Part shown: one piece after another, positions 4,522-32,188 of the stretch | How the letters are laid out: each line of letters starts with the position of its first letter | Position numbering within the stretch: the stretch's first letter is position 1 | IMG/VR virus record: IMGVR_UViG_3300032038_000018 | Coordinates: 1-64,000 of that record | Strand: one strand, 5' to 3' | DNA length: 64,000 nucleotides | Source: a virus | Taxonomy: Duplodnaviria; Caudoviricetes | Program-made: the position numbers and the translations under genes | Notes under the pieces: model-generated | Seen by the model: the letters and a program-made list of their open reading frames with translations, nothing else | What the model was told of the DNA's origin: nothing | The model's database searches: none

Positions 4522-4651
4522 GAGGGAGAGGGGGTAGAGTTTTTTAGATTTCATATAAAACTATTAAACAATTTTATGTAGAGTAAATACAATTTATTCT
4601 ATCGGTTGATGGAGCACCAAACGACGAGCAGAATATGAAAATATTCTGTTG

Positions 4652-4762
4652 GTGCTGTTGTTTGGCAACTTGAACAACGGCGGCAATGCTGGTCCGTTTT
4701 GTTCGAATGCGAACAATGCCCTTTCGAACCCGTCCTGGAACTTTGGGTCTCGTCCTGCCTTC
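4652..4762 (+). ncRNA. DGR template repeat (TR)
   Basis: Intergenic copy of the VR in which all 18 adenines lie in nine in-frame AAC/AAT codons. Confidence 0.85.
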
Positions 4763-4883
4763 GGATACTGCATTTTATCAAATTCAGAGTAATTTTTATA
4801 AAGTATCATGATTTATTTCATGATACTTTATTTTTGTTAATATATGAGAAAAATTCTATAATTGTAGATTATTATCACGTGAG

Positions 4884-5999: not shown

Positions 6000-8261
6000 A
6001 TGGCTTCTTCAGAGTCTTATGCATCATTGTTTAGCGGTGATGAATTAGATTTTGCGATAGCTAAAGCGCTTGGCAATAAATATAGAGGCATTACTACACC
6101 CGGATGTCATTTAGTCGGAGATACTACTGATAATGTAGTAGACTTGGACAAATTGCTCATCCCGGGTAAATATACTATTTATTTTTATATCAATGGACCT
6201 GCTAGCTTCGTATATGATGAAACTACGCAGACAAATATGAGTGAAGATGATGCTGATCCGGAATCACTTACACAGACATCTTCATTTAGTGTAAGACCTA
6301 TTTATCTTGTAATGTATACATCCGGTGGGGATCATCTGTATCAAACTATTATGGTTGGTACCAGACTCTATTGGAGAGATATGTGGTCTAACGAAAATAT
6401 TACAGGTACTCATATACCTTGGAGATGCTCAGACCTTGGTGTTGAATCATCAGTCATTACCAATAATCTCGAATATAAAGAGACTGGTATAAGCGAAGCA
6501 TTATCTCAGAGAATGGGTACTGCATTAGTTGATATGGTAAAGAGACTCCAAATAGGTAATGCAAACTTATTGAATTACACTAATGGATATTTCTCATATG
6601 GAACCAGATTTAATGATTCTCAAACTATTTCTCAGAATATGTCCAAATATTGGAATATGACTAATGGTTCAATCAATACAGTAACATATGATGCTATTAG
6701 AGATGGTCAGATTACTTATCCTACTGATGATACGACTGCACTTAATATAGATCTATTCCCTGTATTTGATGATTTGGATGCCGATATAATTTCAACGTTT
6801 AGATCAACTAGTACAAGTGCTGTATTCAAATCTTATTCAACTTCTTCTACATCCGGTGTGGAATATAATAAGATTTACATGAGTGGTAATTCTAAATATA
6901 CTGCATCTGTATATTTAGTATTCGATCCTTTATTCTTAAAGATGCAAAATGAAAATGTCGCATACATATCTATTATCTTAGATGGTAACCAAGAAGAAGT
7001 AGTTAAGACTGAAACTATTACTCTTAACAGACTTGGTACGGCTATGGAAGAAACGGATATGCATGGATATCCTATAGCAAACCCGGGTGTACCTTATTGC
7101 AGAAATAAGATATTCGAACAGACTGATTATGAATCTGAGCAATATGATGGTCAGTTCAGAGTAATGAATAAAGCTGCAAGTGAGATGGGTTATTATAGGC
7201 TTACAGTAACTATAACACCTGAAGATTTAGATAATGCAAATATAACTGATATAAAGATAGCATTTGGCTTTAATGGCACAGATGCTAAGGGATTATTTGT
7301 ATTACCTAAGGTTGAATATGGTGAATTTGCAACACAATACAATCATAGCTGGGACGATCTTTATTATTATTTCACCAACTGTGAGTCATTCTTCGGTGTT
7401 CCTATTAATATATTGCATCCTACTGAGTTTGAGAATCAGGATAGCTTTGTTTATGATGCGGCAAACAACAGATTCGAAGCTGAACCCGTTGCAATTGGTG
7501 GCGGCGGTGGATTTGTAGTTCATGACAGAGATGATCTCAATATTGAAACTGTAAGTGATAACTCACGCAGATATGCAACTAATAAGCGAAATAATTCAGA
7601 GAAGATTCCTATATCCTATAAACCTGATGGAGAAACTCTTATATTTGGGCATGATCCTAATCATGTAGATCAGAAAACTGGGTATGCTGAAGATGGATAT
7701 CAGGAACTCTATACAGCTAATCATCTGGAACATTATTATCCCAGATATAAAAACATTCTGTTCTTAAACAAACCGACTAATGAGTTATTATATTGGGATG
7801 ACTTATGTAATAGAAATAAACCCGATGGTTCTGCCGATGGATCGGATTATGAAGGTCGTGGCGGATTTGTATCTCTGAATAAATCATTTGTAATAAGAAA
7901 AGGTGTAGACGGACATGCTGGTCCTCAACCTGTTAATTATACAAACGATCAATCTTATACAGAGAGCTATGTTGGCACTAACCAATTCTGGTTACATAAA
8001 CCCGATAGTGTTGGTCAGTCGGCAGTTAGCAAAGCTGCCACTATTAAGTATTATGACCCTGAAGAAGAGATGTGGTTAACTGCTAAGGCAGATGCAGCTA
8101 GCATATATGTAGTACAGCCTACAGCACCAGGACCTGAATTCTTAGGTAAATTCTGGATAAACTCTACTACAGATGCAGTGTATTATTCCATTATGCAAAA
8201 TAATCAAGTTGTATGGAAACCTATCTTCTCTATTTGGGGAGCTAATCCTACCACTACATAA
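6000..8261 (+). CDS. Tail fibre/baseplate-associated structural protein
   Basis: IGNANLLNYT...PKVEYGEFATQY module and C-terminal VVQPTAP...GKFWINSTT...W motif, both typical of phage tail proteins. Confidence 0.6.
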   Translation: MASSESYASLFSGDELDFAIAKALGNKYRGITTPGCHLVGDTTDNVVDLDKLLIPGKYTIYFYINGPASFVYDETTQTNMSEDDADPESLTQTSSFSVRPIYLVMYTSGGDHLYQTIMVGTRLYWRDMWSNENITGTHIPWRCSDLGVESSVITNNLEYKETGISEALSQRMGTALVDMVKRLQIGNANLLNYTNGYFSYGTRFNDSQTISQNMSKYWNMTNGSINTVTYDAIRDGQITYPTDDTTALNIDLFPVFDDLDADIISTFRSTSTSAVFKSYSTSSTSGVEYNKIYMSGNSKYTASVYLVFDPLFLKMQNENVAYISIILDGNQEEVVKTETITLNRLGTAMEETDMHGYPIANPGVPYCRNKIFEQTDYESEQYDGQFRVMNKAASEMGYYRLTVTITPEDLDNANITDIKIAFGFNGTDAKGLFVLPKVEYGEFATQYNHSWDDLYYYFTNCESFFGVPINILHPTEFENQDSFVYDAANNRFEAEPVAIGGGGGFVVHDRDDLNIETVSDNSRRYATNKRNNSEKIPISYKPDGETLIFGHDPNHVDQKTGYAEDGYQELYTANHLEHYYPRYKNILFLNKPTNELLYWDDLCNRNKPDGSADGSDYEGRGGFVSLNKSFVIRKGVDGHAGPQPVNYTNDQSYTESYVGTNQFWLHKPDSVGQSAVSKAATIKYYDPEEEMWLTAKADAASIYVVQPTAPGPEFLGKFWINSTTDAVYYSIMQNNQVVWKPIFSIWGANPTTT

Positions 8262-8327: not shown

Positions 8328-9944
8328 ATGCCAATAAATGAAGAATATTTAGCTCATAATCCGGAAGCTTTAAATAATCATAATGCAACTAATTCAGAAG
8401 CTGATTATGATAAAGCGTTAGCTTACTGGAATCATCCAATGACGGATGAGCAAGCTAAATCATTATTAAATAGAATCAAATTTGCTTTCTTATATAGAAA
8501 TGGATTTAAATTAAATAGTGATAAATGGAGAGAAAGTACAATAGACGTACTCGATATCTCCCTAAATAATATAGAAAGAACTAAGAAAGTATCTTCTGAT
8601 GAATATAATATAGAGGCAGATGATAATCCTAAATATGGTATCGATCAAGTTGATACTATGCCTACAGCTTCTATAGATTATTTAGATATAACTGTCCAAT
8701 ACATTGGACAATCTATTTTCGATAGTTATCAACATAATGCATTCTATAAATGCATAGAAGACTCTGGAGTATATGAATGGACAGAAGTGGATCCCGTTGA
8801 TACATCAGATGCAAATATTATTAAAGCTATAGATGGTGTTGCTATAATTAACTCTCTCCTTAGAATAAATGAAATAGGAGATGATATGACAGAAATAGCA
8901 AATACATCTTATAATAAAATATTAAAAGCATTCATCAATGGATCATCTTATAAAAATCATACTAAAGAATATATTCTAAATGGAAAAACTCTAACAGATG
9001 TATTTCCGAATGAATCTACTGATGCAGATATTGCAGCAGCAAAGACCAAATATATCAATGTAATTACTATCAATACATCGACCGATGATTTTAATTTTGA
9101 ATCGGATGATGCAGCTAAGAGATTAAAACAAAAATCTTATATAGAGACTATATTACATGATATAAATGATATAATTAAATATGTAAATGCATTTACTGAT
9201 GCATATTTACGTCCATATGATGAGGGAACTCATCAAAATATAACTACAGCATTTGACTATTATGTACTCGATTATATAGTACAAATGATAGAAGCTGAAA
9301 ATGCTTTATTTGTTACTTTATTAACCAAATATGCCAGAACTATAATCGAAGATCCTACTGCTAAAGTAGATATTGATGTATCAATTCAGCATAAACAATT
9401 TAACCATGCCCCGTTTGTTGGCTCAATGTGTAATGGTGCATGTGTTGGATTATGCTTTGGCTCATGTGTTACAACATGTAACGGTTGCGGTGGTTGTACA
9501 TCATATTGTAGTTCATACTGTGGTGCTTCATGTTTTGGTGACTGTGGTAATGCTACATGCGTAGATAACTGTGCTGGTACATGCAAAGGTGAGTGTACAG
9601 GAGATTGTCAAGGTGCATGTACTAAAGATTGTGGAGATGATTGCTCATCATCATGTATAACCTCATGCGCTCATGAATGTAAAGGAAGTTGCACAGGTGG
9701 TTGTAGTATATCTTGCTCAGATAAATGCTCAACCGGATGTAATGATGGATGCTTTACATCATGTACTAGTAGCTGTGGTCATAGTTGTAGTGGTGGCGCT
9801 GCAGCTAAGAGTCCTAGCAAGTCTCCTCAGCCTGCAAATACCAAAACTATAAATACAAATACTAGGAACAATATAGGATTATATACACAAAGTGGAATAA
9901 ATACATCGAATAATGTCGATAGTAGTCCATACCATAATAGATGA
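8328..9944 (+). CDS. Structural-type N-terminal domain fused to CXXX-repeat radical SAM target domain
   Basis: About 360-aa N-terminal region including a tail-fibre-like DTMPTAS...VQYIG...FYKC...YEW segment, then 31 Cys in mostly 4-residue register starting MCNGACVGLCFGSC. Confidence 0.8.
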   Translation: MPINEEYLAHNPEALNNHNATNSEADYDKALAYWNHPMTDEQAKSLLNRIKFAFLYRNGFKLNSDKWRESTIDVLDISLNNIERTKKVSSDEYNIEADDNPKYGIDQVDTMPTASIDYLDITVQYIGQSIFDSYQHNAFYKCIEDSGVYEWTEVDPVDTSDANIIKAIDGVAIINSLLRINEIGDDMTEIANTSYNKILKAFINGSSYKNHTKEYILNGKTLTDVFPNESTDADIAAAKTKYINVITINTSTDDFNFESDDAAKRLKQKSYIETILHDINDIIKYVNAFTDAYLRPYDEGTHQNITTAFDYYVLDYIVQMIEAENALFVTLLTKYARTIIEDPTAKVDIDVSIQHKQFNHAPFVGSMCNGACVGLCFGSCVTTCNGCGGCTSYCSSYCGASCFGDCGNATCVDNCAGTCKGECTGDCQGACTKDCGDDCSSSCITSCAHECKGSCTGGCSISCSDKCSTGCNDGCFTSCTSSCGHSCSGGAAAKSPSKSPQPANTKTINTNTRNNIGLYTQSGINTSNNVDSSPYHNR

Positions 9945-9959
9945 TAGGTGGTGATAATT

Positions 9960-10604
9960 ATGGCTGGATGCGGAGTTTCTGATTGTAGTGTAGCATGTCA
10001 GAGTGAATGCATGCATATATGTGACGCAACTTGTTCCACTGCAAGTAGTACTACCAAAGCTAATAGCTGTGGTTGTGGACAATCAAATTGCGGAGTAGAA
10101 TGCGGCGGTAATGCAAGCAATGCAAGCTGTACAGGTAACTCATGTAACGGTGGCTGCTTTAAATCATGCCAAGCTTTATGCGGCGCCGGTAATGCCGGCA
10201 ATTGTCATGCAAATTGTACAGGTACTACCGGTCATAATAGTGGTAGTGGTGTAAATGGAATGAACTGCGGTGCTTCCAACTGCAGTGGTGGATGCCAAGA
10301 GAATTGTGCATATATGTGCTCAGATGGATGCTCATCATGTCATTCTACATGTAATGGCGGTTGTAGTGGTTGTACTTCCAGTTGTGGCGGTTGTGGCGAT
10401 GATTGCACAACTACATGTCACGCAACCGGAGATAGTATAAGCACTAGCGATAATTCTAACAATAGTAGCTGTAACCAAAGTGTATGTACTGCAGCATGTT
10501 CATCTATGTGTGCTTATGCATGTAATTATGGTAGTAATAGTTCTTGCACAGGTTGCGGTTCTTCATGCAAGGGAGCAACATCTTCTGTTACAGTAGACAT
10601 ATAA
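9960..10604 (+). CDS. CXXX-repeat Cys-rich protein (radical SAM target)
   Basis: ATG after AGGTGGTGA RBS; begins MAGC; 39 Cys. Confidence 0.8.
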   Translation: MAGCGVSDCSVACQSECMHICDATCSTASSTTKANSCGCGQSNCGVECGGNASNASCTGNSCNGGCFKSCQALCGAGNAGNCHANCTGTTGHNSGSGVNGMNCGASNCSGGCQENCAYMCSDGCSSCHSTCNGGCSGCTSSCGGCGDDCTTTCHATGDSISTSDNSNNSSCNQSVCTAACSSMCAYACNYGSNSSCTGCGSSCKGATSSVTVDI

Positions 10605-10695
10605 TATTAAATTTAGAATCCTTATAATGGGATTCTAAATTTATTTTGCCCAAGGACATAATGATAAATTTTAGTATATAAAGGAGGTATGCAAT

Positions 10696-11820
10696 ATGGC
10701 TGGATGTAAACAAGGTTCATGCGGTTCCAGCTGTGGACAAGGATGCGGAAGCTCTTGTGGAAGAGGTTGTGGCACAGCTTGCAGTAGTAGCTGTGGTCAA
10801 AGTTGTAGCACCGGTAACTCTGGGCAATCGCAAAGTGGCGGCAGTAGCAGTAGTAGCAGTTGCAGCGGTTGCGGTAAGAGCTGTGGCGACGCTTGTGGCG
10901 GAAGCACTTGTGGTACATCATCGGCGGCTCATGCATTACCTGCAGGCTGTGCTGGTAATACATGTACTGGCGGCTGCAGTGGCTGCAGTCATAGTGCCGT
11001 TGGTAGTAGTGGTAATTGCGGTATTACATGTTCGGCAAACTGCGGATTTAGCTGTGGAAAAAGTTGTGGATCAGATTGCACCGGATATTGTGGACCATCT
11101 TGTGGAGGCTTATGTGCAGCAGGTAGTGGTTCCGTACCAAGTGGCCCATCTGATACAGTAGATTGGACTCCTGTTCAATCTGGATGCAGCGTGTGCGATA
11201 CAACTTGTATGACAGAATGCTCAACCGGATGCAGTAGTGGATGCAAAAATGATTGTGGCGGCTGTGGTGGATGCTCCAATTCATGCACAGGCACTTGTAG
11301 TAATAACTGTAGTAAAACATGTAAAGGTTTTTGCACTGGCTCATGTGAAACAATGTGTGTTAATACATGTAGCTCATCTTGTAGCTCATGTACAAGTAGT
11401 TGTACTGGGTCATGCTCATCGTGTACCGGTAATTGTGTGCAATCATGTAATACTGGTTGCTTAGGATGCGATTCAGAATGCGATACAACATGTAAATTCG
11501 TATGTAGTCAACAATGCCAAGGTGGCTGCTCAGGACAGTGCTCAGGATGCACTAATAAATGTTCGTCGTGCTCTAATGACTGTAGTGGAACTTGTGGAGG
11601 CGATACATGTGCAACAACATGCAGAGCTTTATGCAAAAACTATTGCACAAGTTGTACAGGTTGCAATACTGCATGTGAAGATGGTTGCTTGTCATCTTGC
11701 ATAGGTTGCACTGGTACATGTGAAGGACAATGCACTGTATCTGCTACGGAAAGATCTATATCTACTCAACGAACATATCTTGAGAGTAGATACAATGAAA
11801 CATATTCCGAGGTGATTTGA
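10696..11820 (+). CDS. CXXX-repeat Cys-rich protein (radical SAM target)
   Basis: AAGGAGGT RBS; begins MAGC; 76 Cys in 374 aa. Confidence 0.85.
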   Translation: MAGCKQGSCGSSCGQGCGSSCGRGCGTACSSSCGQSCSTGNSGQSQSGGSSSSSSCSGCGKSCGDACGGSTCGTSSAAHALPAGCAGNTCTGGCSGCSHSAVGSSGNCGITCSANCGFSCGKSCGSDCTGYCGPSCGGLCAAGSGSVPSGPSDTVDWTPVQSGCSVCDTTCMTECSTGCSSGCKNDCGGCGGCSNSCTGTCSNNCSKTCKGFCTGSCETMCVNTCSSSCSSCTSSCTGSCSSCTGNCVQSCNTGCLGCDSECDTTCKFVCSQQCQGGCSGQCSGCTNKCSSCSNDCSGTCGGDTCATTCRALCKNYCTSCTGCNTACEDGCLSSCIGCTGTCEGQCTVSATERSISTQRTYLESRYNETYSEVI

Positions 11821-11821
11821 C

Positions 11822-12877
11822 GTGCATGATACAACGATAAATAAACCAATTCCTGTAAGGTCAAATCCTGCTAAGATAGAAAATAAAGCAATACCTAGCA
11901 ATTATCTTGCATTATTGAAAAGAATAATGATCGAATTTGCTAGAAGAAGTGGACTTAGAATAAATAATACAACCGGTGAATTATTAGGCGTATCATATTC
12001 TGGATTAAATGGTCCACTTAGAACTAATTTAACTTGGAATCCAAGTGAATTTTTCCCAGAAGATTTTAATGATACAGATATTGGTTCAGTAAGTGATACA
12101 AGATTAACTAAAGCACAAGCTGAATTTGTAATAAATAAATTATTAGAGATTTGTGATATAGAAGGCTATGCTAAAATACCCACTATAAACACAAATAATA
12201 CTACATCGATAACTCAAGTAAATGCAACGTTACCATTTCCTAAAGTTGCAGGAGTAATATCTCAATTATTTGAATATGGTACACTTTATGGTGTTTTGAA
12301 TACTATTTCTGCTGAATCATATACAAGCCCAACTAGTTCGTGTAGAACAGGTTGTACTGGTTTATGCTATGGCTCATGTGCAGTAAATTGTATTGAATCG
12401 TGTAGTAGTACATGCACAGGTGGTTGTTCAACAGGTTGCGATGGTACATGCTCTATTGATTGCACATCTGATTGTGCTGTAAATTGTAGCACTAATTGTA
12501 GCGGTGACTGTGAAAGTGGCTGTGACAGACTATGCATTGATGGATGCATGTCTGAATGTTTAGGCTCATGCACAACTACTTGTACGAATGCATGCAAAAC
12601 TGAATGCACGACTGAATGCGTTAGTTCATGCACAGGCGAATGCACCTTATATTGTACTGCAGAATGCTCAGTTAAATGTACTACTGAATGCGCATCAAGT
12701 TGCACGAATGCTTGCAGTGGATATTGCAAAGGAGGTTGCTATACAACATGCTCATCTACATGCTCAAGTTCATGTGGCTATAACAACTGTATGGGCGCAT
12801 GTAAATCTGGGTGTAGTACTTCGTGCACTAATGGCTGTAGTGGTAATTGTAGAGGTCATAGTAATTCAAATACGTAG
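11822..12877 (+). CDS. N-terminal domain plus CXXX-repeat target domain
   Basis: About 170-aa non-repetitive N-terminus, then SSCRTGCTGLCYGSC...; 43 Cys in the repeat, the first 37 in perfect 4-residue register. Confidence 0.85.
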   Translation: MHDTTINKPIPVRSNPAKIENKAIPSNYLALLKRIMIEFARRSGLRINNTTGELLGVSYSGLNGPLRTNLTWNPSEFFPEDFNDTDIGSVSDTRLTKAQAEFVINKLLEICDIEGYAKIPTINTNNTTSITQVNATLPFPKVAGVISQLFEYGTLYGVLNTISAESYTSPTSSCRTGCTGLCYGSCAVNCIESCSSTCTGGCSTGCDGTCSIDCTSDCAVNCSTNCSGDCESGCDRLCIDGCMSECLGSCTTTCTNACKTECTTECVSSCTGECTLYCTAECSVKCTTECASSCTNACSGYCKGGCYTTCSSTCSSSCGYNNCMGACKSGCSTSCTNGCSGNCRGHSNSNT

Positions 12878-12888
12878 GTGGTGATTTT

Positions 12889-13122
12889 ATGGCAGCGTGT
12901 TTTGGATGTGATTCAACATGTTTGGATGAATGTGTTGGAACTTGTAAGACATCGTGCTTAGGATGCAAAGATTCGTGCTCTTCATGTGGATCAAATTGTG
13001 CATCTACATGTATGCACAACTGTGGTACTGATTGTAATAAAATGTGTGGAAACACATGCTCTTTCTCATGCCAATCGTCATCATCTGATGCTAGTAGATA
13101 TAATAAGTATTTACAACTATAA
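12889..13122 (+). CDS. Short CXXX-repeat Cys-rich peptide
   Basis: 77 aa, 16 Cys, begins MAAC; RBS TAGGTGGTGATTTTATGGC. Confidence 0.8.
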   Translation: MAACFGCDSTCLDECVGTCKTSCLGCKDSCSSCGSNCASTCMHNCGTDCNKMCGNTCSFSCQSSSSDASRYNKYLQL

Positions 13123-13140
13123 TGAATAGGTGGTGATTTT

Positions 13141-13992
13141 ATGGCTGATTGTGCTAACTGTAGAAGCTCATGTACTGTAGACTGCTCTGGTACATGTCAA
13201 GGCGCTTGTTGGACTATGTGTGATAGATACTGCAGTGTCGGAAGTTCCGGAGGTAGTGCATGCACTGGCGGTTCATGCTCTGGTAGTTGTAGTGAAACCA
13301 GTACAGGCACTTGTTATAGATCGTGCACAGATGGATGCGATAACGGATGCGGAACCGGATGCATGCATAACTGCGTTGGTGGTTGTAATAGCTGCACTGG
13401 TAATTGTGACTATGCATGTTTAAAAACGTGTAATGGCTGCTCGGGTACATGCTTAGGCGCATGCAATACCAACTGCACAAGTGCATGTAGTATTAATTGT
13501 GGTAATGGTTGTGCTAGCGCGTGTACATCGTGTTATAAGACATGTCAAAATGGTTGTACTTCGTGTACAGGTGATTGTGGATCTGGTTGTGCTACTGGTT
13601 GCTCAACTGGTTGTAACAGTGGATGCAATGATGTATGCGAAAATGCATGCGATGAAACGTGCATTAATACGTGTAGAACAGGTTGTCAGTCTGGATGCGC
13701 TACAGATTGTGAATCCGGTTGTAAGACAGAATGCACAAATGCATGTGGAACAACATGCTCTGTACAATGTGGCAATATGTGTGGTGTTGGCTGTGCAGCT
13801 AATTGTCTAGAAGCTTGTGCAAATACTTGCGGCTCTGCAGCATGTACATCGTTCTGTACATCTGCATGCTCTGGTACATGTGCACGAGATTGCAAAACTA
13901 ACTGTACGAATGGTTGCTATGGCTGTGAATCAACGTGTACTCAAACATGTAGCGTAAGTTGTTCTGGTACAGCTGCCGAATATACGGCATAA
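13141..13992 (+). CDS. CXXX-repeat Cys-rich protein
   Basis: 283 aa, 67 Cys, begins MADC; same 19-nt RBS/start context as the previous gene. Confidence 0.85.
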   Translation: MADCANCRSSCTVDCSGTCQGACWTMCDRYCSVGSSGGSACTGGSCSGSCSETSTGTCYRSCTDGCDNGCGTGCMHNCVGGCNSCTGNCDYACLKTCNGCSGTCLGACNTNCTSACSINCGNGCASACTSCYKTCQNGCTSCTGDCGSGCATGCSTGCNSGCNDVCENACDETCINTCRTGCQSGCATDCESGCKTECTNACGTTCSVQCGNMCGVGCAANCLEACANTCGSAACTSFCTSACSGTCARDCKTNCTNGCYGCESTCTQTCSVSCSGTAAEYTA

Positions 13993-14046
13993 TAAAAAAC
14001 GGTGGTAAGAACGTAAATATAAATTTTTATTAAAGGAGAAATCATA

Positions 14047-14730
14047 ATGAGCATTTTTACAATGTACAAGGATATCACAGTTGATATCCCTGAAGATATT
14101 TATAATAAGCTTAATAGGTCATCTCGTGAATATGAGATGGCAACAACTGACGTATATTATTACATAATGAATGGCAACACAGTACAGTCTGCTATATTCG
14201 ATGAAATGATCAATGATGCACTTGATGCATACTTTGCACATTCTAAGAATAAAGATATCGTATCCAACGATTTCGTTATTCCTGCTATAAAGAGGGAATA
14301 TAATCTTGATGGCGATGATATAGTTATAAACAACTTCTGGAATATTACATTTGATGGAAATCATACATGTAATATTACTGACATAAAAGTATCCAAAAAT
14401 GATCAGGAAGTTGTGCATGAAGGTACTGTATCAGATGAGTGGGCAGAAAAGATAGGATATCTCCGTGCAAAAATTCAGGTGTATGATGCAATCATATCCA
14501 AGATAATGTCTTCTCTTAACTCTACAATTACTCAGAAAGTTAGAGATGAGTATGATAAGGTAAGAGATATCCGTATAAATCTTCTCATGGAAGAGGATGT
14601 TAATAAGAAAAACTTCCTCAATGAGATAGTTAAGCCTATTCTGGATGAGCATAATTGCGATCCTGAAAAGTGCACATGGAATCTCAATCCTATAGAAAAG
14701 ACATTCAATATAACCCGTACAGTTGATTGA
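14047..14730 (+). CDS. CXXX-repeat modification system accessory protein (TIGR04116-like, apparently duplicated)
   Basis: Directly upstream of the radical SAM; two helical halves ending FWNITFDGNHTCNIT and CTWNLNPIEKTFNIT. Confidence 0.55.
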   Translation: MSIFTMYKDITVDIPEDIYNKLNRSSREYEMATTDVYYYIMNGNTVQSAIFDEMINDALDAYFAHSKNKDIVSNDFVIPAIKREYNLDGDDIVINNFWNITFDGNHTCNITDIKVSKNDQEVVHEGTVSDEWAEKIGYLRAKIQVYDAIISKIMSSLNSTITQKVRDEYDKVRDIRINLLMEEDVNKKNFLNEIVKPILDEHNCDPEKCTWNLNPIEKTFNITRTVD

Positions 14731-14755
14731 TTATATAAGAGGCGGTGTAATTCTA

Positions 14756-16882
14756 ATGTATGAAAGAAAATATTCTCGTACAGAATCATTTCAAGATTTG
14801 ATTGCCCGTCTTTATCCGTTGTCAGATATCGCTCCCGATGTTCGGGAGCGTATTCTTTATGATAAAGATGGATATCCCATGCATTATGTAGCTAGAACAG
14901 TTACTTTCCAAGTTACAGATGACTGTAATCTCTGTTGTGTACCTGCTGGTACTATGATACTGATGGCAGACAAAACAGAAAAACCTATAGAAGAAATTTC
15001 TATAGGCGATAAAATTTTAACTTTTAATGAAAAACCTACACATGCATATCCAATGATGCACGAAGCAGAAGTAACTGCGACAATGTCAAGAGAGATTGAC
15101 TATGTGTATGATATAATAACAGATAGCTCAAGTTTAACTGTTACAGGTAATCATCCATTGTTATATTTAAATCCATTCGGATTTATGGAATATAAAGAAG
15201 TATCACATCTCAGAAAAGGCGATACTATATATGAATACAGTGGAAGACAAATGGTTGCCAGACATATAAGATCTATAGAAAAGCGTGCAGCTAAGACTAT
15301 AGTATATAACTTAACTACTTCGCTTAGTACATATGTGGCAAATAAAATAGCAGTGCATAACTGTTCTTATTGCTATCAGATAAATAAGAAGCACCATAGT
15401 ATGCCCTTTGAAGTAGCAAAAGAATTTGCCGATATGATACTCGAATCTACCAAAGAAAATAATGATTACATTACGGTAGAATCTTCGCCCGGTGTTGTAT
15501 TTGAGTTCATAGGTGGAGAACCGTTCTTGGAGATAGATCTTATTTCTAAAATCTCTGATTACTTAGTACAGAGAATGACTGAGATGAGACATCCATGGAG
15601 AGATAAGTTTATGTTTTCTATATGCTCTAATGGCCTTCTTTATAAGAATAAGAAAGTCCAAGCATATATGGAAAAATATAAATACAATATATCTTTCTCA
15701 GTATCTATAGATGGTAATAAAGAACTCCATGACTCATGCAGAGTTAAACCTGATGGGACCGGTTCATATGATATTGCTATAGATGCAGTTAATCATTATA
15801 GAGAGCACTTCCAAGGTAAGATGGGCTCTAAGATGACAATGGCTCCTAGTAATATTACATATGTATATGATGCAGTCAAAAATCTTATAGATCTCAAATA
15901 CGATGAGATTTATCTCAACTGTGTATATGAAAAAGGCTGGGAGCCTCATCATGCTACTGAGCTTTATAATCAATTCAAAATGTTATCTGACTATATGATA
16001 GAAAGTGGACATTTTGAAGATACATATTTATCATATCTGGACGATACAGGATTTCATCCTATGGGCGAGGAGCATCAGCAGAACTGGTGCGGTGGTACTG
16101 GCTCTATGATAGCTGTAGACTATAAGGGCGATATATATCCTTGTCTGAGATATATGGAATCTTCTATAGGCGATGATATAGAAGCTCCTGTAATTGGTAC
16201 AGTTGAAAAAGGATTCATGTATGACCAGAAGACTAAAGATCTGGTTCATGATATGAGAGCAATCTCCAGAAGATCTCAGTCTACTGATGAATGCTTCTAT
16301 TGTCCTATAGCACAATTATGCAGTTGGTGCTCTGCTTATAACTACCAAGAGTTTGGTACTATTAATAAACGTGCTACATATATCTGCATAATGCATAAGA
16401 GTAGGACACTTACCAATATCTATTATTGGAATAAAGGTTTTAAGAAATATGCACCTTGGTTTAAGTTTGCATCTTGGATTCCTAAAGAGTATGCTCTTGA
16501 AGTTATATCCGAAGAGGAATATAATATGCTCTTGAGTCTTATAGAATTTACAGATGAAGACAGAGCTCTTACTCAAAAGATGCTCGATGAAGGAAAGATA
16601 TCGGATAGATATATTAATTATGCTAGGACTGCACTTGAAACCAATAGACCTGTATTTACAAATGATATTGGTAAAGTAATGGTAGATGCACTCAACGCAG
16701 ATGGATCTCCTTGCTATGATGAAGTGATGTCTGCTAGTAAATATGGCAAAGATGTAGTCAAACTCGATGAGCCTATAGACTATACTTCTATTGCATATGC
16801 TGGAGTATTTGATTATATCAATAAACGTGGATTTGATATACATGCAGTTAAATTAATGGAGAAGTATGGTGGTTTAGAATGA
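14756..16882 (+). CDS. Radical SAM/SPASM peptide maturase, CXXX-repeat target family (TIGR04115-like), intein-containing
   Basis: TFQVTDDCNLC|CSYCYQ after splicing, EFIGGEPFL, SIDG, SPASM cysteines WCGG...YPC...CFYC...CSWC...YIC. Confidence 0.9.
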   Translation: MYERKYSRTESFQDLIARLYPLSDIAPDVRERILYDKDGYPMHYVARTVTFQVTDDCNLCCVPAGTMILMADKTEKPIEEISIGDKILTFNEKPTHAYPMMHEAEVTATMSREIDYVYDIITDSSSLTVTGNHPLLYLNPFGFMEYKEVSHLRKGDTIYEYSGRQMVARHIRSIEKRAAKTIVYNLTTSLSTYVANKIAVHNCSYCYQINKKHHSMPFEVAKEFADMILESTKENNDYITVESSPGVVFEFIGGEPFLEIDLISKISDYLVQRMTEMRHPWRDKFMFSICSNGLLYKNKKVQAYMEKYKYNISFSVSIDGNKELHDSCRVKPDGTGSYDIAIDAVNHYREHFQGKMGSKMTMAPSNITYVYDAVKNLIDLKYDEIYLNCVYEKGWEPHHATELYNQFKMLSDYMIESGHFEDTYLSYLDDTGFHPMGEEHQQNWCGGTGSMIAVDYKGDIYPCLRYMESSIGDDIEAPVIGTVEKGFMYDQKTKDLVHDMRAISRRSQSTDECFYCPIAQLCSWCSAYNYQEFGTINKRATYICIMHKSRTLTNIYYWNKGFKKYAPWFKFASWIPKEYALEVISEEEYNMLLSLIEFTDEDRALTQKMLDEGKISDRYINYARTALETNRPVFTNDIGKVMVDALNADGSPCYDEVMSASKYGKDVVKLDEPIDYTSIAYAGVFDYINKRGFDIHAVKLMEKYGGLE
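14936..15361 (+). mobile_element. Mini-intein (142 aa, no endonuclease) within the radical SAM CxxxCxxC motif
   Basis: Starts CVPAGT, block B TGNHP, block F VYNLT, ends VHN followed by Cys+1. Confidence 0.92.
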
Positions 16883-17583
16883 GAAGCTATTATAGTCCAT
16901 TAAACGATGGCTCATATCAGGTTAATGCATACTCATTATCCAGAAAATCAGGTGTACAAAGATCCGAATACACTACATATGCTGGAGCTGCAAATGAGTC
17001 TGCACAAACAGAAGATGAGCTTATTCCACCTATTAGTACAGATGTAGATGTACATAAAGTATATAATACAGTATTTAATAAAGATCGAATATCTTTATCT
17101 ATACCGTGTTATAATATGATGACTATCTATAAAGTACATCTTAGTATAGCAAATTCATTAGGTAATAAAGCTATTCTTGGAATATTTGATGACGAATACA
17201 TATTTGCATCATTTAAGCTATGCAATGATGATACAGCATATGCCGAAGGTGAATATGATTTGTTATTCTCATGGGAAGGCAGTGATTCCGATATATCGGT
17301 TGTATCTACAGCTGCATCTATCAATACAGATTTAGATGTAATTGACATAAATGGAATTCATCCATTCTTACATAATGGTATTCTATATTATAAGATAGCC
17401 AATGAGCAATCCGAAGGGAACTTTAAGTTTATACCATATATACTCAATAGATATCCTGTTATGAATGATGATAATAGTGCAAACCCATCTATGATTCATT
17501 TTAGAATATCCGGTATAGATGACGCAGGACTTGCTCAGCTTACTGTGGAGACATATCCTCTCATGTACGTGCCTAGTGAATAA
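16879..17583 (+). CDS. Hypothetical protein, overlapping the radical SAM stop codon
   Basis: ATGA overlap; 234 aa. Confidence 0.65.
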   Translation: MRSYYSPLNDGSYQVNAYSLSRKSGVQRSEYTTYAGAANESAQTEDELIPPISTDVDVHKVYNTVFNKDRISLSIPCYNMMTIYKVHLSIANSLGNKAILGIFDDEYIFASFKLCNDDTAYAEGEYDLLFSWEGSDSDISVVSTAASINTDLDVIDINGIHPFLHNGILYYKIANEQSEGNFKFIPYILNRYPVMNDDNSANPSMIHFRISGIDDAGLAQLTVETYPLMYVPSE

Positions 17584-17649
17584 TCGTATTTTTATTGTGA
17601 TATCGACATTTGATTAATGTCGATATCACATTTTGTTAGAGGTGAGACT

Positions 17650-18870
17650 ATGGCTTTTTACAAATGGGACAGGATCTTTGATTCCGGGATTAGTGATTTT
17701 GTATCTAGTGGAATAGTAGCATTAGGTAAAACCGGATTGCTGAGACCTGTCGAAAATAAACAAATGCCAATGAATGTGGAGTTACACGCATGTGTGCCAT
17801 ATTTTGATGGATATTTATTAATAATGCCCGGGTTAATGCTATATATAAACGCTGAAGGTCAAATCAGTGAGAATAAAATAGATTTAGCATTAACAGATGG
17901 CGTTTTCATAAATGGAATGATTCTGTTGGCTACTACAGATGGAAAGATCTTATTTAGCAAAGAACCTCTTGTATTTAAAGAGCATTCCAGAAAATTAAAT
18001 AAAATAACTCGAGTAAATAAATGCGAAGATAAAGCAATAATCTGTGGCGACACTACTATTGCTATAGCATGGGAAAAAGATAATCGAGTTGAATTCAAAC
18101 AATTAGCTACACATTTTCATCATATAAATGCATATCTATATGATGGAAAAATATTTTCTTTTTCAGATGATGGATTCTTAAATGTCTATTTCATAGACAA
18201 AGAATTCAATATATTACCTAATTCATTATATAGAATAGATATAAACAGCAATCTGATAGATGCAACAGTGAATTCTATATACATAGATCATGATTCAAAA
18301 ACTTGCGATATTTATTTCTTATGTAATAACGGTATAGTTGCTGTTATACCGAACTTTAAATATACTAAAGATTCTATAACCGAAATAGATAAAAATCTTA
18401 TTATGCATGAAGCTAAGTTAACAGACAATAGCTATTTTAAAGATATGACCAAATATAATGATGAATATATTATAGTTGGTTATGGAGAAGAAACAAAATC
18501 TTGCATAAAGACTAAACAGCTCAAAGATTCTATTATAGCTCATAATCTGTTAAATAGAATATCTGGGCCTGAACGTTATATGCATAATTTTGCATCAACG
18601 TATGAGTCTAAGTATAAGAAGAGCAAATCCGAAGATACTAAGATGAAAGCATTGTTGACTGTGCATCTGATAGTGTATACTAACACAGATGGATCTAAAT
18701 ATATTAAGACAACTGATATTGGTTTAATACCGAATTCATTTACAATATATGATGTACAAGATGCAATTTCTACAGAAGTATTTTCAAATATAATACCTGT
18801 GGATACCGATAAGCCTAAGTGTAAAGTTACTATAAGCATCAGTGAAGATATGATAGAGAGGTGTTATTAA
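17650..18870 (+). CDS. Hypothetical, possibly beta-propeller structural protein
   Basis: GAGGTGA RBS before ATG at 17650; beta-strand-rich repeat-like segments. Confidence 0.55.
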   Translation: MAFYKWDRIFDSGISDFVSSGIVALGKTGLLRPVENKQMPMNVELHACVPYFDGYLLIMPGLMLYINAEGQISENKIDLALTDGVFINGMILLATTDGKILFSKEPLVFKEHSRKLNKITRVNKCEDKAIICGDTTIAIAWEKDNRVEFKQLATHFHHINAYLYDGKIFSFSDDGFLNVYFIDKEFNILPNSLYRIDINSNLIDATVNSIYIDHDSKTCDIYFLCNNGIVAVIPNFKYTKDSITEIDKNLIMHEAKLTDNSYFKDMTKYNDEYIIVGYGEETKSCIKTKQLKDSIIAHNLLNRISGPERYMHNFASTYESKYKKSKSEDTKMKALLTVHLIVYTNTDGSKYIKTTDIGLIPNSFTIYDVQDAISTEVFSNIIPVDTDKPKCKVTISISEDMIERCY

Positions 18871-20258
18871 TGACAAATATACCTGTGAATACACTTGATA
18901 CAAAGTATACATCATTAGCAAAGCTGTTGGCAAAACCTAAGAATGACACCTTGAAATATGATACATACTATAGCTTCCCTGTGAAGATATCATCTATTGA
19001 TTATGGTTATATAACATTATCAGATGGATCTATCAAGAAAATGTTCGTTGCATCTAATGAAGCTGACGAACTCAAGACTAATACAATATATTTCTCGGAA
19101 GATGGAGTTAACTGGTTTAATATAGATTTCCCAGTTGTGGAATCCACATCGGTATATAATAAGATCTGTATATTCAATGGATCAATATATATGCTATATG
19201 ATGATAAATTATGCAAATTATCTAATTTCGATATTGAGAATGGTATTATGACTAAGACTGATATAGAAGGCGAAGCATATGATATCATCGTAATAAAAAA
19301 TGAATTATGGGCATTGGCTCATAATGGCATTTATAGAGTATTATCAGATGATAAATACTCTGACCTGATACAGATAACCGGAGACTTTGTATTTGAGAGA
19401 TTCATTAATTCTGCAGTGGATGATTTAGTATTAATGGGTTACGCAGATAAGTTTCCTGTATTTGTATTATTTGATGGAGAACCTCATCCTATATTTATTA
19501 CAGCAGATTTCCAGATACAGACTGCAATTAGTTATAAAGACTATATCTATTGCTATACTAAAGATGAAAGAATCATTACTATATATAAGACTCAAGATTT
19601 GAGTAAGACATCTTATAGTGTATATGCAGGATACAGATGGTCAGGAGAAGTATATTATTATCATTCATATTTCTGGATAGCATATACCGAATTCGTTAAT
19701 AATGAATTCTTTACATATGTAGCTAAATCTAATAATGGAATAGACTTCGAAGCAGATGTAAAAGTACCAAGAGAATCCGAAAATGCCGGTGCTTTTGTTA
19801 TAGCTACAACTCCTGATATGGAATCTATAGTGTGTATTGGATTAGGAGATCTATATACACTAATACCGTCTATAAATTATTTTAGTTATGGTAAAGCAAA
19901 TATACTCAATACATGTTATGACTTAACTGAATCTCGTGAAGTAACTATAACACAAACTGATTTCAGTGATGTAGATAACTTTAGCAAATATAATATCAAA
20001 GTTTCTGTAGTATATGGTAAAACTATATTGGATACTGATGTCAAATTTGACATTAGCCCAAGGGTTAAAGATCATAGCATTGTGTTTAAGCTAAAAGATA
20101 AAGAATACGATATTCCTGAAATAGAACCTGAGGAATTGGAAGTATTAGAAGATGATAGTGAAGAAGAATCCGATGAACTTCCTGATGAGGAGATCGTAGT
20201 AGAACCGGATAAACTTCAGGTTCGTGTTCTCATATACGGCATAGAGTCGGTATGCTAA
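18870..20258 (+). CDS. Hypothetical, possibly beta-propeller (BNR-like) structural protein with acidic tail
   Basis: FSEDGVNW and KSNNGIDF Asp-box-like motifs; TAATG coupling to the previous gene. Confidence 0.55.
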   Translation: MTNIPVNTLDTKYTSLAKLLAKPKNDTLKYDTYYSFPVKISSIDYGYITLSDGSIKKMFVASNEADELKTNTIYFSEDGVNWFNIDFPVVESTSVYNKICIFNGSIYMLYDDKLCKLSNFDIENGIMTKTDIEGEAYDIIVIKNELWALAHNGIYRVLSDDKYSDLIQITGDFVFERFINSAVDDLVLMGYADKFPVFVLFDGEPHPIFITADFQIQTAISYKDYIYCYTKDERIITIYKTQDLSKTSYSVYAGYRWSGEVYYYHSYFWIAYTEFVNNEFFTYVAKSNNGIDFEADVKVPRESENAGAFVIATTPDMESIVCIGLGDLYTLIPSINYFSYGKANILNTCYDLTESREVTITQTDFSDVDNFSKYNIKVSVVYGKTILDTDVKFDISPRVKDHSIVFKLKDKEYDIPEIEPEELEVLEDDSEEESDELPDEEIVVEPDKLQVRVLIYGIESVC

Positions 20259-20290
20259 CATTTTATTAAAAATAGTTAGTAGGTGATATA

Positions 20291-20665
20291 ATGGATGAAT
20301 TTTCAATAAGATCGATTGAATTTAAGAACGTCAATAATTTACCTACAGGAGATCCTGCAGTTACAACATTAGTTGGCGTCAATACAAATTTGAAAGATTT
20401 CGTAAAGATTCCAATGGATAATCTTATCACTGATAAACTTACTGCAGATCCAACTCCTGCTGTTAGTGGTATGACTTTAATATTCAATACAAGTGATAGG
20501 AAGTATCATATAGGAAAAGATTATACATCGGTGGAACTCACGCATTTAAATGCGATAGATACATATTTACAAAGAGCAACTAATAGCGGATGCCGTGAAG
20601 GTGCATGCACTAATTATTGTGTAGCAGTTGCAACTAGTGTGTCTACATTAGTTCAATCATCATAA
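20291..20665 (+). CDS. Small protein with short C-terminal CXXX motif
   Basis: Ends SGCREGACTNYC, similar to SSCRTGCTGLC at the start of the 11822..12877 repeat. Confidence 0.65.
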   Translation: MDEFSIRSIEFKNVNNLPTGDPAVTTLVGVNTNLKDFVKIPMDNLITDKLTADPTPAVSGMTLIFNTSDRKYHIGKDYTSVELTHLNAIDTYLQRATNSGCREGACTNYCVAVATSVSTLVQSS

Positions 20666-20679
20666 GGTGGTGATTACAC

Positions 20680-21498: not shown

Positions 21499-21518
21499 CA
21501 AATTGAAGGTGAAATAAA

Positions 21519-22747: not shown

Positions 22748-24760
22748 ATGTCAAAAACTAATCCATTGGTAGTACTTGACCCCGGACATGGTCCTGTTAC
22801 AAACCCGTATCCTGCAGCTAGCGGATATTATGAAGGCACTCAGATGTATAAGCTTATGCTTGTACTTAAGTCTCGCCTTGAAGAGAGTGGAATCAATGTA
22901 ATCACTACAAGGAAAAAGATTACAGATGATCCTGATCTGTCCACTCGTGGTTCGACTGCTGGTAAGAATAAAGCTGATTTATTTATATCTCTTCATTCCG
23001 ATGCAGTTGGTAACTATGTAGCATCTGCGAATGGTGTAAGTGCATACTATAGTATTCAAGACAGTGCTGCTAATAAAGTATTTGCAGCTAAAGTATCTTC
23101 TTCTATAGCAGCTCTTATAGGAACTAGAGATAGAGGTGCATTGACCAGACTTGGCAGTAATGGACTTGATTACTATGGAGTAATTAGAAGTGCTGCTGCA
23201 TCTGGATGCAGAAATGCATTCTTGGTTGAGCATGGTTTCCATACCAATTCAAACGATGTTAAATGGTTAATATCCGATAATAAATTAGCTCAGATTGCTG
23301 AAATGTGGACTAAGATATTATGCGAATATTTTGGGAAGACTTATAAACAAGCTGTCCCGATTTCTAATATCAATGTAACGACCACAACTAATCCGACAAC
23401 AACTGCTACTACAGATAAACAAATCACCATATACAAGCAACTTTATAAATATACTAATGCAGCTAATGCATTATCCGGTAATACTTCATTAGCATCCGGA
23501 CAGTTACAGCCTGGTGCATATTATATCTATAAAGAGTATAATGGTGCAACTAACTTAACTAAGACAGCAGGAACTCCAGGTTCTTGGGTAGTTATTAGTA
23601 ATGCTGCTGCATCTGTACCTGCAGATATAGAAACCCCTGTAGCTACACCTGATAAGTATACAACTACTAATAAATTCAAGATCTATATGAGTTCTGCAGA
23701 TGCTGCTGCTAAAGTAAATCCTCTTAAGAATTCAGATGGAACTTTTAAGACATACGATGCAGGCACATACTATATTTATAAGAGAATTAATGATACTGTA
23801 ATTAATATATCCACTAAATCAGGTATTGCCGGTGCATGGATAAATATCAACGACTTCCTTGAAGACGAGAAAACCGTATTCAAGAAAGGTGATATTGCAG
23901 TATTTAAGTCAGGTGTAATTCCCTATTATAGCGATGGCACACGAATTCCGTTATACGTTATTGCAGAAGTAAATGGTAAGAAGAGTTCTCCTGTAATATC
24001 TGTAGACCTCAACAACAATGTTTCAATATACAATGTAGAGAAATCCATTCCTAATAAGTATCTTCAGATTGGTATATATGCTACAGATGCAACACTTGCT
24101 AAAGCAAATGGATATTCTGATAAGCATACAACCAAAGATGAGCTCACATCTTTATTAGAGTCTAAATATGGTTCTCTTAAACTCTTAGCTAATAGCAAAG
24201 GTTATAAAGAGTTTGTAGAATACATGGATAATCTTTTAGAAGATGATGTCGTTATAGATACTGATAGCGATCTTGATCCTATTATGGGCGAATCGTATCT
24301 CACTGTAAATCAGTTAGTAAGATTCGTTAAAGCACAAAATCCCAAGTTTGATGGAAACATTGCTGCTGCATTTATAGAGAAATGTAAAAAGTATGGCATT
24401 CGTGGTGATGTCGCATTCTGTCAATCTATCTTAGAGACAGGATGGTTTAAATATGTAGGCTCTGCTGTTACAGAAGATCAACATAATTATGCAGGTCTTG
24501 GTGTAACATCTAATGGTGTTAAAGGTCTTTCATTCGGATCTGTATCTGCTGGTGTAGAAGCTCAGCTTCAACATCTGTATGCATATGCAACTAAAGCAGA
24601 TCTTCCCGAAGGAACTACATTATTAGACCCCAGATTCAAATTAGTTGCTAGAGGTTCTGCTCCCAGATGGGTAGATCTTAATCAGAAGTGGTCTTCTAGC
24701 ATTGAGTATGGTCAGAAGATATTAGCAATATATAAACAAGCGTGCAATAGTAGCTTATAA
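22748..24760 (+). CDS. Endolysin: Amidase_3 plus C-terminal glucosaminidase
   Basis: LDPGHG, ISLHSDA and LVEHGFHTN zinc-amidase motifs; QSILETGWF...HNYAGLG glucosaminidase; two internal YYIYK...G.W repeats. Confidence 0.88.
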   Translation: MSKTNPLVVLDPGHGPVTNPYPAASGYYEGTQMYKLMLVLKSRLEESGINVITTRKKITDDPDLSTRGSTAGKNKADLFISLHSDAVGNYVASANGVSAYYSIQDSAANKVFAAKVSSSIAALIGTRDRGALTRLGSNGLDYYGVIRSAAASGCRNAFLVEHGFHTNSNDVKWLISDNKLAQIAEMWTKILCEYFGKTYKQAVPISNINVTTTTNPTTTATTDKQITIYKQLYKYTNAANALSGNTSLASGQLQPGAYYIYKEYNGATNLTKTAGTPGSWVVISNAAASVPADIETPVATPDKYTTTNKFKIYMSSADAAAKVNPLKNSDGTFKTYDAGTYYIYKRINDTVINISTKSGIAGAWININDFLEDEKTVFKKGDIAVFKSGVIPYYSDGTRIPLYVIAEVNGKKSSPVISVDLNNNVSIYNVEKSIPNKYLQIGIYATDATLAKANGYSDKHTTKDELTSLLESKYGSLKLLANSKGYKEFVEYMDNLLEDDVVIDTDSDLDPIMGESYLTVNQLVRFVKAQNPKFDGNIAAAFIEKCKKYGIRGDVAFCQSILETGWFKYVGSAVTEDQHNYAGLGVTSNGVKGLSFGSVSAGVEAQLQHLYAYATKADLPEGTTLLDPRFKLVARGSAPRWVDLNQKWSSSIEYGQKILAIYKQACNSSL

Positions 24761-31888: not shown

Positions 31889-32188
31889 GTGAATAAGATG
31901 TCTGTAGACGAAGCTATTAACATAGCAAGAGTTGCTATTCATAAATACTTCCTTGCAGCACAAGCATTACCCAAGCATTCTAAGTTTTCTGATATAGAAG
32001 CTGATCGTAATGCTGCTATAGCTGCCATACATCAATTCTCTCAGGTGAAGAGAGACCATGGCGAACATGGTCTTTCTCCATATGAAGAGCGATCATTACA
32101 AACATTCGATGCAGCCGAAGTTGTAATGATGACTAAGTTAGAAATAACTGAAGAAAAGTTATATGGAGGTGCTTGTCATGCCCACTGA
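31889..32188 (+). CDS. Hypothetical protein
   Basis: 99-aa ORF between gyrA and the next gene. Confidence 0.55.
   Translation: MNKMSVDEAINIARVAIHKYFLAAQALPKHSKFSDIEADRNAAIAAIHQFSQVKRDHGEHGLSPYEERSLQTFDAAEVVMMTKLEITEEKLYGGACHAH

Follow-up and report, generated by a model that had tools for sequence, protein, structure and literature searches.

A phage-borne CXXX-repeat radical SAM system with six cysteine-ladder substrates and an intein-containing maturase

The systems most similar to the one described here are the CXXX-repeat radical S-adenosylmethionine (SAM) systems of NCBIfam/TIGRFAMs, which comprise a maturase (TIGR04115), target families (TIGR04114/PF27846, TIGR04117 and TIGR04118) and an associated protein (TIGR04116) and which were defined by bioinformatics only. 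Our full-text literature search returned no paper on TIGR04115, the CXXX-repeat targets or any connection with phages. The closest experimental precedent is CrpC/CrpA of Methanococcus voltae, where the SPASM radical SAM enzyme CrpC (TIGR04463) installs ranthionine links on CrpA, a 28.8-kDa cysteine-rich repeat protein (Dieter et al. 2026, PMC13692751). The N-terminal domain of CrpA aids engagement and a paralogous partner improves processing; the biological role of CrpA is unassigned, metal binding is suspected and phages are not mentioned (PMC13692751). Our analysis did reveal a phage-borne member of the CXXX-repeat radical SAM systems on a stretch of 64,000 nucleotides (hereafter the window), which is the first 64 kb of the 128,376-bp IMG/VR record IMGVR_UViG_3300032038_000018 (Duplodnaviria; Caudoviricetes). 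This member is expanded to six adjacent substrates with cysteine (Cys) ladders and two remote tagged proteins, and its maturase gene is interrupted by a mini-intein. We think it fairly probable that the spliced maturase, together with a helper protein, makes thioethers along the ladders and that the products, still protein-sized, end up in a tail appendage.

The ladder substrates are encoded by six consecutive open reading frames (ORFs) at 8328-13992, in all of which a Cys spacing of four residues predominates. Translation gave 32, 39, 76, 44, 16 and 67 Cys (274 in total), close to the hand counts of 31, 39, 76, 43, 16 and 67 in the first-pass annotation, which had been made from the sequence without database searches. 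Cys content of the ladder ORFs is 6-24% compared to 1.4% in other ORFs of the genome, and a strong Shine-Dalgarno site precedes each of the six. Exact C-x3-C units number 242 when the two remote tags described below are counted as well, most of them in the six ORFs. A leader is missing in four of the six substrates, which begin with MA(G/A/D)C; for substrate 2 the likely start is ATG 9960, preceded by the ribosome-binding site GGTGGTGA. Substrates 1 and 4 (genes at 8328 and 11822) have a non-Cys N-terminal region instead, and both carry the junction C-x3-C-x-G-x-C-x3-C, which is absent from the leaderless ladders. This junction reads C174-x3-C178-x-G180-x-C182-x3-C186 in substrate 4, and the CXXX ladder of substrate 1 covers amino acids (aa) 368-487 (DNA 9429-9788). 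The N-domain of substrate 4 belongs to a family of ~105 aa that most loci, bacterial as well as viral, have ahead of the ladder. In an alignment of 59 of its sequences the junction was invariant, with the consensus SSCRGACTGLCxGxC. An AlphaFold2 (AF2) model of this N-domain predicts helices and strands (pLDDT, predicted value of the local distance difference test, 62). No PDB sequence matched the N-region of substrate 1, and a profile search for longer N-domain fusions returned longer ladder proteins only, with no fibre-domain fusions.

A relative (locus L010) with a maturase 72% identical to that of the window keeps all six ladder frames open and in the same order. Between the two loci, 15 of 16 Cys are conserved in substrate 5 and 44/44 and 67/67 aligned Cys in other ladder orthologs, whereas just 26-39% of the non-Cys residues are identical. 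Since the orthologs keep their Cys while the spacers diverge, the ladder ORFs are real genes under selection for Cys register. The possibility that they are chance frames in a GC-rich repeat was rejected, given their ribosome-binding sites, conserved orthologs and conserved Cys. Ladder length does vary, with 433 aa and 97 Cys in the L010 ortholog of substrate 6 compared to 283 aa and 67 Cys here. G+C content is 0.41-0.43 at 10000-14000 versus ~0.34 in the rest of the window, a region that overlaps with the Cys/Gly/Ser/Thr-rich ladder genes, and the increase likely stems from codon content rather than foreign origin.

The ladders are followed by an accessory gene (14047-14730, hereafter the helper) and a SPASM radical SAM gene (14723/14756-16882), as the first-pass annotation had read them. 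The latter encodes a member of the TIGR04115 family, matching it with 401.1 bits (396.4 in a second scan) against an equivalog cut-off of 350 even with the intein in place. Further hidden Markov model (HMM) searches had been proposed along with that annotation. For TIGR04116 the genome contained no candidate even with the limit set at E<=10, and four helpers from prophages or phages did not match it either. The 18-position repeat model TIGR04114/PF27846 matched no window protein at E<=0.01, though the CXXX periodicity is plain; it does match a leaderless ladder from a prophage (32.4 bits, cut-off 20), and the L010 ortholog of substrate 1 has a weak precomputed PF27846 match. For substrate 5 a weak TIGR04118 match was obtained (18.6 bits). 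No candidate for the CXXX_matur domain TIGR04119 was found in the genome at E<=10. The maturase likely starts at ATG 14756, in agreement with the 708-aa P0001, a homolog with 98% identity across the searched region. The next-best families were PapB NF047865 (154.7 bits, E 3.5e-45, cut-off 340), QhpD (95 bits), HxsB and the SCIFF maturase, and the CrpC family TIGR04463 gave 57 bits versus a cut-off of 525. CteB (PDB 5WGG, E 1.7e-15) is the nearest solved structure. The SPASM domain model TIGR04085 scored 34.2 bits (cut-off 27) and the SPASM Cys columns are invariant in our alignment A1. A C-terminal extension of ~150 aa (16430-16882, aa ~570-719) reaches past the TIGR04115 model and occurs only in a close jumbo-phage clade; homologs at 100% query coverage have it and the ~440-aa prophage maturases do not.

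A mini-intein of 142 aa that has no homing endonuclease domain interrupts the CX3CX2C motif of the maturase. Its ends (C72...H212-N213, with C214 as +1 residue) correspond to an exact 142-aa indel relative to the intein-less homologs P0017, P0025 and P0080, and its removal in silico gives CNLCCSYC as in intein-less homologs. Pfam Intein_splicing scored 31.6 versus a threshold of 35.8, and Hint families were also slightly under their thresholds. Inteins occur in 39 of the 120 best maturase homologs at four insertion sites, the site of the window being used in 16 of them. Each site directly precedes an iron-sulfur (Fe-S) ligand Cys that serves as +1 nucleophile. This is the second or the third Cys in CX3CX2C and, within SPASM, either the first Cys or the one that ends the motif CX2CX5CX2-3C. 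Some of the homolog inteins hold inserts of homing-endonuclease size (310-362 aa).

The helper consists of two tandem copies of a ~100-aa module. Almost all related loci have a single-module gene of ~100 aa immediately 5' of the maturase, and duplicated helpers were also found in two relatives (L010 and L011). An HMM built from 50 prophage helpers matched the window gene in two domains (E=7e-8), with the next protein of the genome at E=0.028, and no Pfam or NCBIfam family was found for the helper. The AF2 model (pLDDT 93, predicted template modelling score 0.85) shows two units, each consisting of a long helical hairpin and a small beta sheet. When the helper was modelled in complex with the N-domain and junction, the score was 0.00, which speaks neither for nor against binding.

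We then compared the setting of the cassette in bacteria, using one genome per species. This survey gave 80 loci, mostly from gut Bacillota with a few spirochaete and actinobacterial genomes. Nearly all of them contain a ladder ORF, in which the first Cys of the run falls at about aa 103-115, and some, like the window, pair a low-Cys N-domain protein with a separate leaderless ladder. One maturase homolog (P0080, on a Caproicibacterium chromosome) sits in a prophage. Genes for tape measure and sheath initiator come first there, then Baseplate_J, Mu Gp48 and two small fibre-like genes, then the cassette with N-domain ladder protein, helper and maturase, and after it a small gene and a GH25 lysin. 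Among 114 neighbour proteins from 29 loci the commonest Pfam families were Baseplate_J (8), Mu_Gp48 (5), Collagen (4), BppU_N, Amidase_3 and Amidase_2 (3 each) and Phage_tail_fib, Tail_P2_I, Prophage_tail and Mtd_N (2 each). With search profiles derived from the Caproicibacterium prophage, a Baseplate_J homolog was detected at 33 of 81 loci; in 35 of 36 cases its gene shared the strand of the maturase and ended 1.8-8.3 kb upstream of it, and a lysin started 1.7-2.7 kb past the maturase start in 9 of 12. Lying between Baseplate_J and the lysin, the prophage cassette fills the final position of the tail module, which is where genes for fibres and fibre accessories are found. The view of the CXXX families as described from bacteria hence needs correction, since many of those loci are in fact tail modules of prophages.

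Relatives of the maturase were found on 318 IMG/VR stretches. Of 80 loci taken from these, 76 have a ladder ORF and 79 a helper, and the triad of substrate, helper and enzyme is conserved. Ladder substrates reach 968 aa in relatives compared to 538 aa here. The array in the window is large and not unique, as a contig of 141 kb carries five ladder ORFs and a total of 317 Cys in them. Gene neighbours were examined for loci L002, L003 and L005 and 13 dereplicated loci, and besides tail genes they included genes for anaerobic ribonucleotide reductase (RNR), HNH endonucleases and tubulin-like proteins. The RNR neighbours in some large viral contigs fit an anaerobic host, and the tubulin/TubZ-like ones may indicate PhuZ-like jumbo-phage biology.

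Two remote CXXX tracts were located in the same genome by a six-frame scan. One of them is part of a 1379-aa tail-fibre-like protein encoded ~87 kb from the cassette, for which we found Pfam Phage_tail_C (31.6, cut-off 23.7), Hep_Hag-like repeats and an atlas Hep_Hag/PTR cluster (0.91), and no match among GenBank phage proteins or PDB sequences. Its gene belongs to a minus-strand late block, between virion structural proteins with the tail sheath at 82.9-89.2 kb and a virion protein with the head maturation protease at 112-116 kb; in a PHROG scan around it, seven of ten genes of this structural block had no match. Two or three repeats of ~120 aa with Gly/Ser linkers between them are seen near the C-terminus of the 1379-aa protein. 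The second tract is fused to an unrelated domain in a protein encoded downstream of the topoisomerase genes (32178-33029), which has no Pfam family beyond the tag. The tail-fibre slot of the prophages and the tract on the fibre-like protein are independent comparative evidence for the link to tail appendages that had been proposed at the outset.

Immediate embedding of the cassette in the tail module, by contrast, was seen in the prophages and not in this phage, where sheath, virion proteins and head protease are found at 83-116 kb. The cassette lies outside the tail module here and belongs at most to an outlying group of fibre-type and lysis genes. Its flanks had been described as tail-fibre-like and tail-type genes; a fibre link could be demonstrated only for the phrog_17147 protein at 2549-4462, and 6000-8261 and 16879-22439 are both without family match. 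Two phrog_17147 paralogs of the protein at 2549-4462 are encoded next to the sheath (91195-95146, minus strand), and one of them (93242-95146) also matches the 'tail protein' phrog_5302 with its C-terminal part; these paralogs may be further diversified receptor-binding proteins. A pair resembling those of diversity-generating retroelements (DGRs) consists of a variable region (VR) at 4327-4439 and a template repeat (TR) at 4651-4763, with 13 of 18 TR adenines changed and 14 additional non-adenine mismatches; no reverse transcriptase (PF00078) was found in the whole 128-kb record. Small ORFs fill the space up to the 753-aa protein at 6000-8261. This conserved upstream neighbour has no match in Pfam, PHROG, PDB or GenBank-phage proteins, and its fibre leads are weak (atlas feature matches <0.9, to tail-fibre-type clusters). 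Its ortholog in L010 is 58% identical over non-Cys residues. Downstream, the C-terminus GCREGACTNYC of the protein at 20291-20665 resembles the ladder junction with one extra residue, and the equivalent slot in another relative (L011:8703-9008) holds a 101-aa ORF with 19 Cys. A 64-aa ORF at 43892-44086 has nine Cys outside the CXXX register (CETCKC..C..C..C..C..C) and may encode a small zinc-ribbon-type protein. CheckV puts the record at 52% completeness, so the full phage genome would be ~250 kb; viral contigs with related maturase genes measure 98-254 kb. No DNA match to the cassette was found among GenBank phages. All features are listed in Table 1.

Table 1. Features of the cassette, its flanks and the remote tagged proteins. 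Positions are those of the window unless a contig is named.
Feature	Position	Strand	Remarks
Substrate 1, 538 aa, 32 Cys	8328..9944	+	365-aa Cys-free N-region, junction motif CNGACVGLCFGSC, ladder, Cys-free C-tail
Substrate 2, leaderless (MAGC...), 39 Cys	9960..10604	+	Frame open from 9948
Substrate 3, leaderless (MAGC...), 374 aa, 76 Cys	10696..11820	+	
Substrate 4, 351 aa, 44 Cys	11822..12877	+	N-domain aa ~25-173, junction, ladder up to aa 343
Substrate 5, leaderless, 77 aa, 16 Cys	12889..13122	+	Smallest of the six
Substrate 6, leaderless (MADC...), 283 aa, 67 Cys	13141..13992	+	
Helper, 227 aa	14047..14730	+	Tandem duplicate of ~100-aa module
Radical SAM/SPASM maturase precursor, TIGR04115 class	14756..16882	+	Frame open from TTG 14723
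Mini-intein, 142 aa	14936..15361	+	Between first and second Cys ligands of CX3CX2C
Seven SPASM Cys: C456, C474, C524, C527, C533, C536, C555	16088..16387	+	For two auxiliary 4Fe-4S clusters
Remote CXXX-tagged protein, 283 aa	32178..33029	+	N-terminal run of ten Cys spaced exactly four residues apart (DNA 32190-32300)
Tail-fibre-like protein, 1379 aa	contig 101077-105216 (= L008:1077-5216)	-	CXXX tract aa ~37-157; 34 Cys in protein
Dda-like helicase			Upstream flank of cassette
phrog_17147 protein, 637 aa	2549..4462	+	Paralog of two genes beside tail sheath; DGR-like variable region at 3' end
753-aa protein, function unassigned	6000..8261	+	Conserved upstream neighbour
Possible minimal substrate, 124 aa	20291..20665	+	Ends ...GCREGACTNYC...; weak lead
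Endolysin, amidase plus glucosaminidase type	22748..24760	+	Orthologs carry Amidase_3 and Glucosaminidase
Type II topoisomerase			Downstream flank, after endolysin

In the mechanism we propose, the maturase would be made as an inactive precursor in which the mini-intein parts the cluster ligands, and splicing would restore CX3CX2C. Together with the helper, the mature enzyme would move along the ladders and most likely link Cys sulfur to a carbon of nearby spacer residues. Cys-S-to-carbon thioethers are proposed by analogy, because the nearest characterised relatives make them. The outcome would be chains of very small rings and hence stiff, protease- and reduction-resistant products, which would remain protein-sized without export and would most likely be built into virions as parts of a tail appendage. 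The conserved N-domain with its junction would be used for docking or entry, and the ladders that lack a leader would be co-assembling units. A wider and more tentative version, which we would put forward with some doubt, is that many phages of gut anaerobes, from temperate ones of 30-60 kb to jumbo phages of ~250 kb, staple ladder proteins by radical SAM chemistry into rods that form or tip a tail appendage, the phage described here having in addition an intein-gated enzyme in which the +1 nucleophile is an Fe-S ligand.

Several results weigh against stapled tail parts. The spacer positions x1-x3 are mostly S/T/G/A/D/N with none invariant, so that there is no conserved acceptor and the ring topology is not predictable, and the ladder region of the AF2 model has a pLDDT <50 and is of low confidence. 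Fold searches gave little help, with no informative relative of the N-domain model in Foldseek (best E-value 0.43) and only generic helical hairpins for the helper in Foldseek and VIA-align (Z up to 7.9), which is why the helper is not a recognisable RiPP recognition element (RRE; RiPP, a peptide made by the ribosome and modified post-translationally). As to genomic context, the main structural block of this phage is >60 kb from the cassette, the immediate neighbours in the window are not demonstrably tail genes, the six genes 3' of the maturase (16879-22439) matched no family in Pfam and PHROG scans, and a slot beside tail-fibre genes is also typical of morons and fibre chaperones. The proposed survey of relatives for a tail context likewise had a mixed outcome, affirmative for the prophages with Baseplate_J upstream and divided for the dereplicated IMG/VR contigs, where tail genes (Baseplate_J, Sipho_Gp37, SPP1_Dit) make up only a part of the neighbours. 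The prophage slot would suit an unstapled accessory of fibre assembly or receptor binding, that is, chaperones or tips of adhesins that disulfides or metal ions keep in place, with the radical SAM enzyme performing another reaction such as Cys-to-formylglycine conversion or a single modification at the junction. Fibre chaperones do occupy the slot after the fibre gene, the junction is the sole invariant sequence, and the anaerobic sulfatase maturase is a detectable relative of the enzyme (56 bits). However, all ladder Cys are conserved between orthologs, also beyond the junction, leaderless ladders are kept despite having none, and the best-scoring characterised relatives all form thioethers, so we consider such an accessory unlikely.

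A non-structural product is, in our estimate, a shade less likely still. The ladders, modified or not, would then serve inside the infected anaerobe as sinks for metal, Fe-S or redox equivalents in the manner of metallothioneins, which the extreme Cys content, the small and polar spacers and the metal binding suspected for the analogous CrpA (PMC13692751) would fit, as would those jumbo-phage relatives that place the cassette among metabolic genes such as anaerobic RNR. What this leaves unexplained is the strict and repeated position of the prophage cassette between baseplate genes and lysin, the fusion of a CXXX tract to a fibre-like protein within the structural block, and the constant pairing of the ladder with a peptide-modifying SPASM enzyme rather than with metal-handling genes. 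Most improbable to us is a classical RiPP or bacteriocin, with ladders cleaved to Cys-rich peptides that are freed at lysis and act against competitors or the host. It is true that NCBIfam labels related targets as 'rSAM-modified Cys-rich RiPP' (TIGR04118, weak match) and that the enzyme clade (PapB, SCIFF, CcpM) works on peptides. No peptidase, exporter or immunity gene was found among the scanned neighbours, though, which upholds the first-pass annotation in its remark that transporter, peptidase and immunity genes were missing and in its choice of large proteins over a secreted peptide as targets. Moreover, four of six substrates are leaderless, substrate lengths extend up to 538 aa here and to 968 aa in relatives, the ~105-aa N-domain is modelled as helices and strands and would be unlike a leader, and the cassette of the prophages sits in a tail-module slot.

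If the ladders do serve as stapled components of the tail, phages would have taken up natural-product chemistry to make their host-recognition apparatus. This would be a class of post-translational modification not known in virions and the first case of RiPP-type chemistry that cross-links a structural protein of the virion, and the fibre architecture would be new; it could account for particle stability in protease-rich, reducing gut habitats and would give the orphan family TIGR04115 a function. Irrespective of this, the four independent intein sites, each before a cluster Cys, are an unusual natural case that could serve the study of splicing coupled to Fe-S assembly. The 77-aa substrate, the helper and an intein-less homolog are small, which makes the system directly testable, and several cultured isolates carry the cassette, some of them in a clear prophage tail module. 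Examples of such isolates are Caproicibacterium, Neglectibacter timonensis, Eubacterium pyruvativorans, Anaerolentibacter hominis, Desnuesiella massiliensis and Anaerobacterium chartisolvens.

Several known enzymes bear comparison with the maturase. Rv2578c-type radical SAM proteins that contain an intein (NF038136) gave a weak 28.9-bit match to the intein part of the maturase; they are a different enzyme family, and here the intein lies directly before an Fe-S ligand Cys at all four sites seen in homologs. QhpD is a SPASM radical SAM enzyme that forms Cys-to-Asp/Glu thioethers inside a protein subunit which stays in a larger assembly. Its family (TIGR03906) is among the matches of our maturase, but its target, the quinohemoprotein amine dehydrogenase gamma subunit, is a single small subunit with few links and no repeat ladder, and it serves the maturation of a periplasmic enzyme. 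CteB, a SCIFF maturase (5WGG/5WHY; TIGR03974), shares the layout of radical SAM plus SPASM and forms thioethers, yet it is of low identity, has an N-terminal RRE-type domain and acts on a ~45-aa peptide with six Cys. PapB, the freyrasin enzyme, resembles the present system in iterative thioether formation on repeated Cys motifs four residues apart (C-X3-D). Besides scoring far below the PapB family cut-off, the maturase differs from it in its substrates, as PapB uses a short leader-bearing peptide in which Asp is the acceptor at +4, a position taken by the next Cys here; D/E occurs at x3 in 37 of the 242 C-x3-C units. The locus thus falls outside the PapB ranthipeptides, and its lack of leaders on most substrates, of a nearby peptidase or transporter and of an RRE-like helper match sets it apart from classical RiPP clusters as well.

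With CrpC/CrpA the system would share a SPASM radical SAM enzyme that acts on a protein-sized, repeat-bearing, Cys-rich substrate with an N-terminal domain, the product remaining a protein; CrpC/CrpA is also the single published case of such a substrate, and ladder proteins reach ~100 Cys each. The two differ in enzyme family (TIGR04463 versus TIGR04115), in the repeat, which in CrpA has 17 residues and C-X-X-Q/D acceptors compared to the four-residue ladder here, and in the RRE that is fused to CrpC and not evident in our proteins. CrpC/CrpA is furthermore archaeal and chromosomal, with no phage link. The NCBIfam CXXX system, finally, has the neighbours with Cys at every fourth residue and the small partner gene upstream in common with the cassette. 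Against this shared plan the phage locus stands out by six substrates with 274 Cys, four of them leaderless, by a duplicated helper that does not match TIGR04116, by an enzyme that is split by an intein and extended at its C-terminus by ~150 aa, and by a setting in phage or prophage tail regions to which the names of the families do not refer.

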